Shown here piece after piece: positions 34,687-35,323 of a stretch of 64,000 bases of DNA. Below the pieces are notes generated by a model that was not told the origin of the DNA, made no database searches, and was given only the letters and a program-made list of their open reading frames with translations. A program made the position numbers and the translations under genes. This DNA is from Escherichia coli (GTDB taxonomy: Bacteria > Pseudomonadota > Gammaproteobacteria > Enterobacterales > Enterobacteriaceae), in the NCBI RefSeq assembly GCF_029227855.1, contig NZ_CP074356.1. One strand, given 5' to 3'. How positions within the stretch are numbered: the stretch's first letter is position 1; each line of letters begins with the position of its first letter.

Positions 34687-35155
34687 CCATATAACCCGTT
34701 ATCTCTTTCTCAAGTTTTTATATTAGCAGTACTCGTATTAAGCAACATATCCACGTAACACCTCATGTTCAAAATAGCTCTCCATATATGAGAAGTTCAC
34801 AATTATCGATACAAAAAATCAAATTTAATCAAAGTGTTATTTGTATAATCCTTAAACCGTTAAGAAATTTTAACATATTATTTTTTTAATATTAATTAAT
34901 GCCTGTTAATTTTTTCTTTAGAATAACAGTGTATTTTTTAAGCTTGTTATTCATTGATTAAGTAATAAATCTGGAAATTTGTCTTTGTTTTGAGGCTAAT
35001 GAGTGATTTTACATAATCGCCTCTATACGCTGTTGATGAATAGTTCTTATGAATAAAGATATCCAGTTCATACTTTAAGTGAAAATTGATAAAGTACGGT
35101 TCGCGTTGTCTTTTATTCTAAGGACATCGAGTGTAGTTAATATTCCTTGTAAAAA

Positions 35156-35276
35156 CAGGGATAAACCGAACTAGTTAAAGTTTTTATTATGTTCCCTGCA
35201 TCAGCGGGGATAAACCGGACTTGTTATCATTTTTTAAGTTGTCGAACTTATGTTCCCCGCGCCAGCGGGGATAACC
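35156..35276 (+). CRISPR. Degenerate short CRISPR remnant (CRISPR 2.2-like): three partial repeats with two AT-rich spacers, next to ygcE
   Basis: CAGGGATAAACCG ... GTTCCCTGCATCAGCGGGGATAAACCG ... GTTCCCCGCGCCAGCGGGGATAACC read directly. Confidence 0.7.
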
Positions 35277-35323
35277 ATTCAGGTATGTTCAGGCCGGGCA
35301 GTTTCCCGCCCGGCCTTCCTCAC

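Follow-up and report, generated by a model that had tools for sequence, protein, structure and literature searches.

The AT-rich separator and the invariant CRISPR2.2 mini-array of a split Escherichia coli CRISPR-II locus

Introduction

The type I-E CRISPR-II locus of Escherichia coli has been described in a split form, in which CRISPR2.3 is followed by a 0.5-kb AT-rich sequence and then by CRISPR2.2, which has three repeats and two invariable spacers (PMC3903273, PMC4489801, PMC10910852). These papers credit the CRISPR2.2/2.3 nomenclature to Diez-Villasenor et al. 2010, the spacers of CRISPR2.2 are described as invariable in PMC4489801, and where the 0.5-kb spacing between CRISPR2.2 and CRISPR2.3 is reported, leaders are named for 2.1 and 2.3 only (PMC3903273, PMC3737337). 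Modified terminal repeats are found in 86-100% of CRISPR arrays (Touchon & Rocha 2010, PMC2886076).

The same DNA in K-12 also appears in the work on promoter islands, a class defined computationally (PlatProm) together with ChIP-chip in K-12 (Shavkunov et al. 2009, PMC2731890; Panyukov & Ozoline 2013, PMC3661553). RNA polymerase binds all 78 K-12 promoter islands (PMC2731890, PMC3661553). One of these, 2901670_347 at ygcE/queE, is listed as H-NS-bound "according to all studies" (PMC3661553 Table 1) and is placed inside a predicted genomic island (PMC3661553). These papers do not discuss a CRISPR link (PMC2731890, PMC3661553). The two literatures, which do not cite one another, are linked here.

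Results

By the window we mean the whole 64,000-nucleotide stretch of E. coli DNA that was analysed. The part of it that concerns us contains the following features.

33771-34108, + strand: leader 2.3, the main array's genuine leader, located between the stop of queE and repeat 1
34109-34686, + strand: CRISPR2.3 array, from repeat matches; 10 repeats and 9 spacers, last repeat degenerate
34658-34686, + strand: terminal CRISPR2.3 repeat (R10), GAGTTCCCCGCACCAGCGGGAATAAACCA, 26/29 against the consensus
34687-34803, + strand: two eroded repeat-spacer units (first ~117 nt), repeat remnants at ~34720-34748 and 34775-34803
34804-35029, no strand assigned: AT-rich variable core, non-coding, ~225 bp, from the strain alignment
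35030-35139, no strand assigned: conserved proximal block directly upstream of CRISPR2.2, from the strain alignment
35140-35168, + strand: CRISPR2.2 repeat 1 (R1deg), AT-converted with the hairpin retained, ATATTCCTTGTAAAAACAGGGATAAACCG, 18/29 against the consensus
35169-35188, + strand: spacer S1, 20 nt, 15% GC
35189-35217, + strand: CRISPR2.2 repeat 2 (R2), 24/29, hairpin of -12.1 kcal/mol
35218-35249, + strand: spacer S2, 32 nt, 28% GC, invariant in the strain comparison
35250-35278, + strand: CRISPR2.2 repeat 3 (R3), 24/29, altered 3' end (GATAACCAT)
35292-35315, no strand assigned: GC stem-loop between ygcE and the CRISPR locus, GGCCGGGCAGTTTCCCGCCCGGCC
35324-36802, - strand: ygcE, an FGGY-family sugar kinase (context gene)

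We consider it probable (roughly 80%) that the E. coli type I-E CRISPR-II locus is present here in its common, published split form and that this region makes up its trailer half. The region shares with that form the flanking genes (queE/ygcF and ygcE), the repeat family, the 0.5-kb separator and the three repeats with two invariable spacers, and we found no structural difference from the published form. The segment, which is annotated CRISPR/ygcE, was matched at no less than 80% coverage in 4123 of 5426 complete E. coli genomes, K-12 among them. The comparison with the K-12 CRISPR2.2/2.3 region that the initial annotation had suggested gave a collinear layout and 95.8% identity, and both the AT-rich tract and the second degenerate mini-array that it had described were borne out, the latter in the same orientation as the main array. 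The window allele carries a few private or ancestral-type substitutions, two of them additional changes in the last repeat of CRISPR2.3 and five located in the proximal block. Leader 2.3 is homologous to leader 2.1 and retains 91-93% identity in E. albertii and in E69, a divergent Escherichia lineage. The split layout is already known, and the locus is genuine but ordinary.

For the 27-nt repeat core, with up to 3 mismatches allowed, the number of chance matches expected in the window is 0.00. R2 and R3 lie 61 nt apart, as in a type I-E array, with R1deg only 49 nt upstream of R2, and R2-S2-R3 has the canonical 29/32/29 geometry. All three repeats fold in the same register (-7.9, -12.1 and -15.1 kcal/mol) and contain the Cas6e-type 7-bp stem and 4-nt loop, with 98.6% of cells paired; in R1deg two two-sided changes (C-G to U-A) and a wobble pair have left both stem and loop in place, a hint of selection on the predicted structure. 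The first partial repeat had been recognised earlier only by its 3' 13 nt, from 35156; the repeat is real, but it begins further upstream, at 35140. S1 shares 12 of 20 positions with the start of S2, a level possible by chance in AT-rich DNA.

Both S1 and S2 are identical in every sampled E. coli strain that keeps them. For S2 this amounts to seven of seven sampled strains retaining that repeat-spacer unit, and 30 of its 32 positions are matched in E69. No spacer turnover was seen at the leader-proximal end of CRISPR2.2, where the block is 96-98% identical in ~4,100 near-full-length matching genomes (4,519 in total). Because both spacers are invariant over thousands of genomes, nothing appears to be being added at CRISPR2.2. 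Losses do occur: strain 113 has lost exactly one 61-nt CRISPR2.2 unit, and E69 is without S1 and R2. No protospacer of S2 was found in phages or true plasmids, the best phage match having E = 0.3. Perfect plasmid matches to S2 were rejected; they come from the same three mislabelled chromosomes, of 4.8-4.9 Mb, that accounted for all plasmid matches to the tract, which likewise has no true plasmid homologue.

The tract itself (34690-35155) is 27.3% GC, compared with 50.8% for the whole window and a mean of 52.8% for CRISPR2.3 spacers. Its first ~117 nt are homologous in position to an eroded repeat in K-12, TAGTTCTCCATGCCAGAGAGGTTCACAAT (17/29, P(max) = 0.0015), and to one in E69, TCGTTCCCTGTATCAGCAATAAATAACAT (15/29), which lies exactly 61 nt past the last intact repeat. 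In the window strain alone the eroded repeats are unrecognisable, with a best match of 12/29, the null level. As in trailer-end degeneration, recognisability falls away from the leader, from R10 to the two eroded units; unlike in simple trailer decay, a better-preserved mini-array reappears past the eroded stretch.

We examined the tract for other content. Sensitive blastn found no phage homologue, and the AT-rich insert of strain RMDEC465 is unrelated to the tract except at the leader end and flanks. Rfam returned, over 33000-36000 at E <= 1, one chance-level match (Chlorobi-1, 16 bits against a gathering threshold of 50), which lies inside the main array. Small open reading frames of 31 residues (35079-35174) and 33 residues (34788-34889) were rejected for want of a Shine-Dalgarno sequence; the former also shows no coding-type conservation, its E69 substitutions being mostly non-synonymous and its end not conserved there. 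A 20-residue frame on the minus strand was rejected because it is truncated in E69. Scanning 33700-35500 for consensus promoters found 7 sites (4.0 +/- 1.9 expected), of which 4 lie in the tract. No strong promoter consensus was conserved across strains, the only such hit, at 34990-35017, being without its -10 T in K-12.

By coordinate conversion, promoter island 2901670_347 maps to ~34706-35051 of the window, that is, to the eroded units and the variable core, with a shift from U00096.2 to U00096.3 that we take to be +1,975 to +1,977 bp. That island, the K-12 homologue of most of the tract, is AT-rich, at least 300 bp long and bound by both H-NS and RNA polymerase. According to what is published on the K-12 copy, the larger part of the tract would be a promoter island occupied by H-NS and RNA polymerase with little productive transcription; to call it silent is to extend to it what is reported for K-12 promoter islands as a class.

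The initial annotation had proposed that the tract is CRISPR2.2's own former leader. We found no support for this, since the tract has no detectable similarity to any leader tested: alignment to CRISPR leaders revealed none to leader 2.3, to the 2.1 types or to the Klebsiella I-E leader. In Smith-Waterman local alignments scored against block shuffles, the tract reached z = 0.7 with leader 2.3, 1.5 with the leader 2.1 of its own strain (CRISPR-A repeat type by our reading) and 0.3 with the K-12 leader 2.1, while true leaders, used as a positive control, matched one another at z = 3.2 to 31.6. A leader profile HMM (nhmmer), built from Escherichia 2.1 and 2.3 leaders and a Klebsiella spallanzanii leader, matched the repeats only and not the tract. 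Type I-E leaders have an IHF site no more than about 35 bp from the first repeat and a promoter upstream. No IHF-type site lies at a leader-proximal distance from R1deg, the sole perfect consensus being at 34827, 313 nt away. The tract does resemble a leader in being AT-rich non-coding DNA next to a first repeat and conserved in the species, features that are not in themselves leader-specific.

It seems to us highly improbable that a second array was founded independently and that the tract is the decayed remainder of its leader, once equipped with a promoter and integration signals. Such a leader would fit the composition (27% GC, near the 31% of leader 2.3), the correctly oriented position of the tract on CRISPR2.2's leader side, and the conservation of ~110 bp beside R1deg, which is at least as good as that of leader 2.3. 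The best match to leader 2.3, which is not significant (AAAAAATCAA...GTTAT, window 34812-34845), falls at the repeat-proximal end of that leader and is followed by TAAACCG at 34853-34859, and the perfect IHF consensus lies at 34827. However, leaders recognise each other and the tract shows no significant similarity to three E. coli leader types or to the profile; the IHF-like site is 313 nt from R1deg rather than about 30 nt; the spacers never vary, in the literature (PMC4489801) or in our genome comparison; the 5' quarter of the tract is eroded array; and leaders are named in the literature only for 2.1 and 2.3 (PMC3903273, PMC3737337). Because leader homology, a correctly placed IHF site and spacer turnover are all lacking, the comparisons show, at the level of sequence, that CRISPR2.2 is not an adaptation site.

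E69 carries a tract that is 74% identical, and the element is on that account old. The variable parts of the tract are 67-81% identical between E. coli and E69, similar to the 80.5% at third codon positions of ygcE. In ygcE, E69 differs from E. coli by 6.7-7.8%, which makes it more distant than Escherichia sp. MOD1-EC7003 (5.0-5.3%), a lineage without the tract. A second, E69-like haplotype inside E. coli was rejected: among 5,426 complete genomes, matches of at least 99% were short and confined to repeats, and the best full-length match was 77.8%.

Fused CRISPR2.2-3 arrays, found in some E. coli and in other Escherichia species, share the R3-type end (…GGGGATAACCATTCAGG) and then the same hairpin with the split form. 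They are without the 592 bp that separate R10 from R3 (tract, R1deg, S1, R2 and S2), and their terminal repeat begins GA or GG, not AT. Fused arrays close with a hybrid repeat, which has a normal 5' GA... and an R3-type 3' ...GATAACCATTCAGG. The R3-type repeat end and flank close the arrays of CX08 and Z0117EC0054 (both fused), E. albertii and E. whittamii. Since the same repeat end and downstream flank close both fused arrays and the arrays of other species, R3, with its altered 3' handle, is on this comparison the true terminal repeat of the whole CRISPR-II locus. As the element appears to be older than the E. coli radiation, the fused arrays are probably deletions, and arrays without the tract are most simply read as deletions from repeat to repeat.

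The variable core has 27 of 221 sites segregating among 8 strains and is 67-81% identical to E69, about the neutral level; it would seem to evolve about neutrally. Chained repeat-remnant scoring found no 61-nt periodicity in it. The core could be an ancient foreign insertion or the result of extreme in-place erosion.

Tentatively, foreign AT-rich DNA may have inserted long ago into the distal, older portion of what was then one ancestral array, dividing that array into CRISPR2.3 and CRISPR2.2, and have later been silenced by H-NS. Degraded repeats flank the core on both sides, the E69 left remnant sharing the CCCTG.ATCAGC variant with R2, and the core has no repeat periodicity. A xenogeneic source would suit both the composition of the core and its published listing as an H-NS-bound promoter island within a predicted genomic island (PMC3661553). 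In E. albertii, E. whittamii and Escherichia sp. MOD1-EC7003 the array runs directly into R3. Repeat-mediated deletion, however, explains these outgroup absences equally well. Moreover, phages and true plasmids yielded no donor, no terminal inverted repeats, target duplication or mobility gene were seen, and the boundary of any insertion is blurred by the AT content of S1 and S2, which is as high as that of the core.

We regard it as unlikely that the whole tract is instead an array eroded in place, with ~8 units enriched in AT by mutation bias without selection and only the outermost repeats still recognisable. In favour of this reading, erosion of an array is demonstrable for the first two units, R1deg is a repeat that has been AT-converted, and R10 and R1deg start 482 nt apart, near 8 x 61 = 488. 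Yet a chained remnant search with 55-67-nt spacing, tolerating C-to-T and G-to-A changes, was null in the window strain, K-12 and E69 (z = -0.8 to 1.5), and the erasure of 65%-GC repeats clashes with the 24/29 match of R2 and R3 next door, barring gene conversion. As a description of the whole tract, eroded array was rejected: periodic 61-nt scoring was null with or without GC-to-AT tolerance, and only the first two units hold.

The end of the tract behaves differently from the core. Segregating sites number 8/188 in the last ~110 bp plus CRISPR2.2 and 40/338 in the rest of the tract (Fisher p = 0.004); within the proximal block they number 6/110, 5 of which are private to the window strain (8 strains). 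Against E69, the last ~110 bp and CRISPR2.2 are 93-96% identical, compared with ~80% at neutral sites; the block and most of R1deg (columns 451-578 of alignment A2) are 93% identical, compared with 80.5% at third codon positions of ygcE, in a sample (8 E. coli and E69) that is thin in divergent lineages. In 4,519 matching genomes the last ~110 bp and CRISPR2.2 are typically 97.7% identical, the central tract ~93% and the adjacent ygcE coding sequence 94-95%. Third positions of ygcE and queE differ by ~9% among E. coli. Such apparent conservation would be unexpected for a pure relic and counts against the relic reading. Local sweeps could mimic constraint, because the neighbourhood is recombination-prone.

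A ~250-bp unit (35030-35278) under selection, either as an orphan, leader-independent gene for a crRNA or regulatory RNA or as a cis element shaping the termination or stability of the convergent ygcE and CRISPR transcripts, would account for polymorphism and divergence lower than in both flanks, for the hairpin in all three repeats, maintained in R1deg by compensatory changes, and for the canonical 29/32/29 geometry of R2-S2-R3. We nevertheless judge this decidedly unlikely. No strong promoter consensus holds across strains, the 34990-35017 hit losing its -10 T in K-12, S2 has no target, and the block shows no unusual RNA structure (z = -0.8 on the + strand and -1.9 on the - strand). Furthermore, UTI89, E. 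albertii, E. whittamii and others are without the unit, with no evident replacement in the sequences read, and strain 113 and E69 are each one repeat-spacer unit short.

Beyond R3 lies the GC hairpin, with an 11-bp stem; 8 nt separate the hairpin from the stop codon of ygcE (minus strand, 35324-35326). Its folding energy is -27.5 kcal/mol for the ygcE strand (z = -5.1) and -20.6 kcal/mol for the + strand (z = -3.9). The hairpin follows ygcE in Citrobacter, Klebsiella, Raoultella and Superficieibacter, genera in which queE lies directly against it, and is also present, with compensatory GAGC/GCTC changes, in an Escherichia lineage without any CRISPR-II. By its distribution it is the ancestral ygcE/queE convergent hairpin, older than the CRISPR locus. 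Across 8 Escherichia lineages pairing holds in 92% of cells, and one lineage has two two-sided changes; in covariation-type measures 35-142 of 500 shuffles reach the observed values, so that this control is not decisive. Selection on the hairpin favouring the + strand, suspected from wobble patterns, was dropped (paired 81/88 on the ygcE strand and 76/88 on the + strand). The suggestion that the hairpin terminates ygcE stands in so far as a conserved stem-loop lies directly downstream of the gene, but there is no U-tract 3' of the stem on the ygcE strand, where the sequence continues UGAACAUACC, and the label of intrinsic terminator is for that reason only an inference. On the + strand the sequence past the stem, UUCCUCACUU, is only partly U-rich, and a terminator scan did not call the hairpin on either strand.

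Discussion

Work on E. coli CRISPR loci has included the AT-rich separator and CRISPR2.2 since 2010, and K-12 carries the same DNA. To this our analysis adds several refinements: the eroded 5' units, the lack of relation to known I-E leaders, an age that probably predates the E. coli radiation, and the conservation of the last ~110 bp together with the mini-array. Read as the trailer half of a split CRISPR-II locus, the region would run along the + strand from leader 2.3 and the CRISPR2.3 array that it feeds, through a degenerate last repeat and two eroded repeat-spacer units, to ~335 bp of AT-rich non-coding DNA, a fossil CRISPR2.2 and the ancestral stem-loop. The element would be an old relic from before the E. 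coli radiation, and recombination between direct repeats would have removed it from the strains or species that do not have it. If CRISPR2.2 is transcribed, its RNA would presumably come from CRISPR2.3 transcripts that read through or from cryptic promoters within the tract. The Cas6e-type hairpin is retained in all three repeats, so that R2-S2-R3 could still give one canonical crRNA, but one with no identifiable target.

The conservation signal is the sole part of this picture that could lead to something new, and it is weak. We would give long odds against 35030-35278 being kept by purifying selection, rather than by inertia, as a leader-independent, fixed-spacer crRNA-like or cis-regulatory element. 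If it were so, the unit might be, for example, a domesticated non-defence guide carried by S2, or a group of hairpins that, under H-NS control, insulates the convergent transcripts of ygcE and the CRISPR locus.

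Layout of the CRISPR-II locus

The structure between queE and ygcE is already known and widespread. Every element listed in the initial annotation, AT-rich tract, partial repeats and hairpin, is present where it had been placed.

Features of the CRISPR-II locus in the window, in + strand order
33099-33770, queE
33771-34108, AT-rich leader (leader 2.3)
34109-34686, main array (CRISPR2.3), ten 29-nt type I-E repeats at 61-nt spacing
up to 35139, 27%-GC tract
35140-35168, 35189-35217 and 35250-35278, three degraded repeats (CRISPR2.2; R1deg, R2 and R3)
between these repeats, spacers S1 (20 nt) and S2 (32 nt)
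35292-35315, GC stem-loop
35324-35326, minus strand, ygcE stop codon

The main array ends in a repeat with three substitutions. All three CRISPR2.2 repeats thought to be partial were found; however, the first is full-length, starting at 35140, and heavily AT-converted. The CRISPR-II locus, from ygcE to ygcF (queE), has been described with a single array (CRISPR2.2-3) or with two that lie 0.5 kb apart, and leaders are named only beside CRISPR2.1 and CRISPR2.3 (PMC3903273; PMC3737337). The window matches the published two-array E. coli layout exactly and K-12 is collinear with it over the segment. The proposed remnant second array holds and is the published CRISPR2.2. The founding paper for this layout is reportedly Diez-Villasenor et al. 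2010. The closest match to the window is E. coli JNEC-KY178 (100% identity; K-12, 95.8%), and of 5426 complete E. coli genomes, 4123 have the 671-bp segment at a coverage of at least 80%, all matches being chromosomal and annotated as CRISPR and ygcE.

The gene beside queE is polymorphic (window ~32800-33090; loci L001, L003, L005 and L006 of other strains): K-12-like strains have a 46-aa yqcG beside ygcG, and other strains a full ~200-aa LemA-family gene. Judging from its ygcG-type ORF (31933-32874), the window probably likewise carries yqcG next to ygcG. In RMDEC465 (L004, NZ_CM177019.1, 1800-2530) the queE-ygcE interval retains only a leader-end remnant, without repeats, and has acquired an unrelated AT-rich insert that codes for a hypothetical protein of 87 aa, whose sole Pfam match, DUF5452 (E = 0.011), is below the family cut-off.

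A second array with the same repeat, CRISPR2.1 (60389-60964), lies downstream of the apparent cas2 3' end. Its four leader-proximal repeats carry the variant GATAAATCG and older repeats GATAAACCG, a pattern suggesting that the first repeat mutated and several spacers were then acquired. The terminal repeat, GAGTTCCCCGCCCCTGCGGTAGAACTCCC (~60997-61025), is strongly degenerate.

Origin of the AT-rich tract

The tract had also been proposed to be the former leader of CRISPR2.2 itself, which was not supported by leader alignments, a profile HMM, the distance to an IHF site or the invariant spacers. In local alignments the tract scored z = 0.7 against leader 2.3 and 1.5 against leader 2.1 of the window strain, while these two leaders scored z = 5.1 against each other; against the K-12 leader 2.1 it scored z = 0.3, with positive controls at 3.2 and 31.6. 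The HMM combined the first repeat with the final 220 nt of six leaders (one from Klebsiella spallanzanii, the others Escherichia 2.1 and 2.3 leaders); it recovered both window leaders (E = 1e-76 and 1e-53), and in the tract matched only the CRISPR2.2 repeats. In leader 2.3, ~31 nt separate the leader-proximal site from the first repeat; the sole perfect IHF consensus in the tract, at 34827, lies 313 nt away from R1deg. Finally, there was no spacer gain at CRISPR2.2 among the sampled strains and matching genomes.

Comparison with K-12 and with E69, a divergent Escherichia lineage labelled E. coli (locus L013, located via its ygcE gene), instead indicated an array tail at the start of the tract. 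E69 has, after its last intact repeat, a 32-nt spacer and a repeat remnant, TCGTTCCCTGTATCAGCAATAAATAACAT, which matches the repeat at 15/29 positions at exactly +61 nt (per-position chance ~1e-4). A second remnant in K-12, TAGTTCTCCATGCCAGAGAGGTTCACAAT, 117 nt past the terminal repeat, matches at 17/29 positions (P = 0.0015 for such a maximum). These remnants imply that array tail makes up the first ~117 nt of the tract, and the homologous window positions (~34720-34748 and 34775-34803) have eroded to background (best repeat match 12/29). For the rest of the tract, the highest-scoring repeat-like matches 55-67 nt apart were chained, both crediting C-to-T/G-to-A changes and not crediting them; scores were at null level in the window strain, K-12 and E69 (z between -0.8 and 1.5). 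Neither phages nor true plasmids yielded a homologue of the core (~34804-35029), which also had no Rfam match, and the short ORFs in the tract (31 and 33 aa) showed no sign of coding conservation. These data are compatible with either a foreign insertion or an eroded array as the origin of the core.

Split and fused arrays

Arrays lacking the tract, in CX08, Z0117EC0054, E. albertii, E. whittamii and Escherichia sp. MOD1-EC7003, finish with an R3-type repeat and the common flank. Fused E. coli arrays close with a hybrid repeat, normal at its 5' end and R3-type at its 3' end. What distinguishes the split form from the fused one is thus a 592-bp segment between direct repeats. We favour deletion as the usual direction, because the variable parts of the E69 tract diverge about neutrally, as for long vertical descent, and because tract-bearing E69 is further from E. 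coli in ygcE (6.7-7.8%) than tract-less MOD1-EC7003 (5.0-5.3%). Furthermore, strain 113 (L005) has lost exactly one 61-nt CRISPR2.2 repeat-spacer unit (alignment A1 columns 539-599), a loss that directly exemplifies repeat-mediated deletion within CRISPR2.2. No E69-like tract haplotype was present among 5,426 complete genomes (best full-length match 77.8%); records at ">=99%" were rejected as this haplotype since they were repeat-only matches.

CRISPR2.2 repeats and spacers

R1deg, R2 and R3 all fold as the canonical 7-bp stem with a 4-nt loop, in one register. In the R1deg stem, pairing is kept through two two-sided changes from C-G to U-A plus a single G-U wobble. Overall, 98.6% of cells are paired, and the observed covariation was reached in 15/500 shuffles. 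Because R2-S2-R3 has canonical 29/32/29 geometry, any transcript crossing it, if one exists, could yield one normal crRNA. Both spacers contain palindromes (S1, 35169-35188, AACTAGTT; S2, 35218-35249, AAGTT-GTCG-AACTT) and finish in TTAT ahead of the repeat. At 12/20 positions the 20-nt S1 agrees with the beginning of S2, which might be the trace of an old partial duplication or a chance effect of AT-richness.

The hairpin next to ygcE

The stem-loop is strong whichever strand is folded, with a GAAA loop and a folding energy of -27.5 kcal/mol on the ygcE strand (-20.6 kcal/mol on the + strand). Several other genera have a GC-rich hairpin ~10 nt or less past ygcE, and in most of them (Citrobacter youngae, Klebsiella, Raoultella and Superficieibacter) the end of queE directly abuts it, so CRISPR-II is an insertion between queE and an older hairpin. 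SCPM-O-B-8794, which lacks any CRISPR-II, retains the hairpin, where GAGC/GCTC changes compensate each other. This divergent Escherichia lineage (L040, 7480-7720; ygcE 7.6-8.2% from E. coli) has ~140 bp and the compensated hairpin between queE and ygcE. While the hairpin is thus conserved and ygcE-proximal, its suggested role as the ygcE terminator is only plausible, because there is no U-tract after it on the ygcE strand (a weak one on the + strand) and the two strands retain pairing to about the same extent (81/88 on the ygcE strand vs 76/88 on the + strand). A bidirectional barrier or a 3'-end stabiliser would be equally consistent. In CX08 (L002) and SCU-106 (L007), only the 3' ~450 bp of ygcE remain past the hairpin and queD and cysJ come next, which indicates a large deletion joining the CRISPR-II trailer to the cys region.

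H-NS and promoter islands

The K-12 promoter island 2901670_347 (ygcE(+)/queE(-); U00096.2 coordinates) is reported to bind H-NS in every ChIP study and falls inside a GIST-predicted genomic island (PMC3661553). RNA polymerase is found on all 78 such islands, with transcription from few (PMC3661553; PMC2731890). A second published K-12 island, 2903475_338, covers the interval upstream of queE. In U00096.3 (record length 4,641,652) our own mapping places the K-12 tract at 2,903,559-2,904,012. With an offset between the two versions that we take to be ~ +1,976 bp at this island, it converts to about 2,903,647-2,903,993, wholly enclosed by the K-12 tract and corresponding to ~34706-35051 in the window. 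This location suggests that the tract is most likely an AT-rich stretch coated by H-NS and largely silent, consistent with the known repression of the E. coli I-E system by H-NS (PMC10910852).

Uneven conservation of the tract

The one unexpected result is the conservation of CRISPR2.2 and the adjacent proximal block of the tract (35030-35139).

Mean pairwise differences among eight E. coli strains
Central tract, 7.8%
Last ~200 bp of tract, 2.4%
CRISPR2.2, 0.7%
Leader 2.3, 3.9%
queE and ygcE third codon positions, ~9.5%

Segregating sites numbered 8/188 in 35030-35278 vs 40/338 elsewhere in the tract (Fisher p = 0.004). Relative to E69, identity is 80.5% at ygcE third codon positions and 67-81%, about neutral, in the eroded units and variable core; it reaches 93% in the proximal block and 94-96% in S2-R3. 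With equal 261-nt queries (4,100 to 5,400 matching genomes), typical identity was 97.7% for the proximal block plus CRISPR2.2, 93.1% for the central tract and 94-95% for adjacent ygcE coding sequence.

No function emerged for the conserved block: we found no promoter consensus kept across strains and nothing unusual in its RNA fold, and S2 had no protospacer in phages or plasmids. Both queE (33099-33770) and ygcE (35324-36802) are unusually polymorphic among E. coli, with third-position differences of up to 23% in queE, suggesting a neighbourhood with old or recombinant haplotypes. The conservation could come from constraint, or from a locally different recombination history in this unusually polymorphic neighbourhood. 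The unexplained conservation of 35030-35278 is the sole lead here that merits a bench test.
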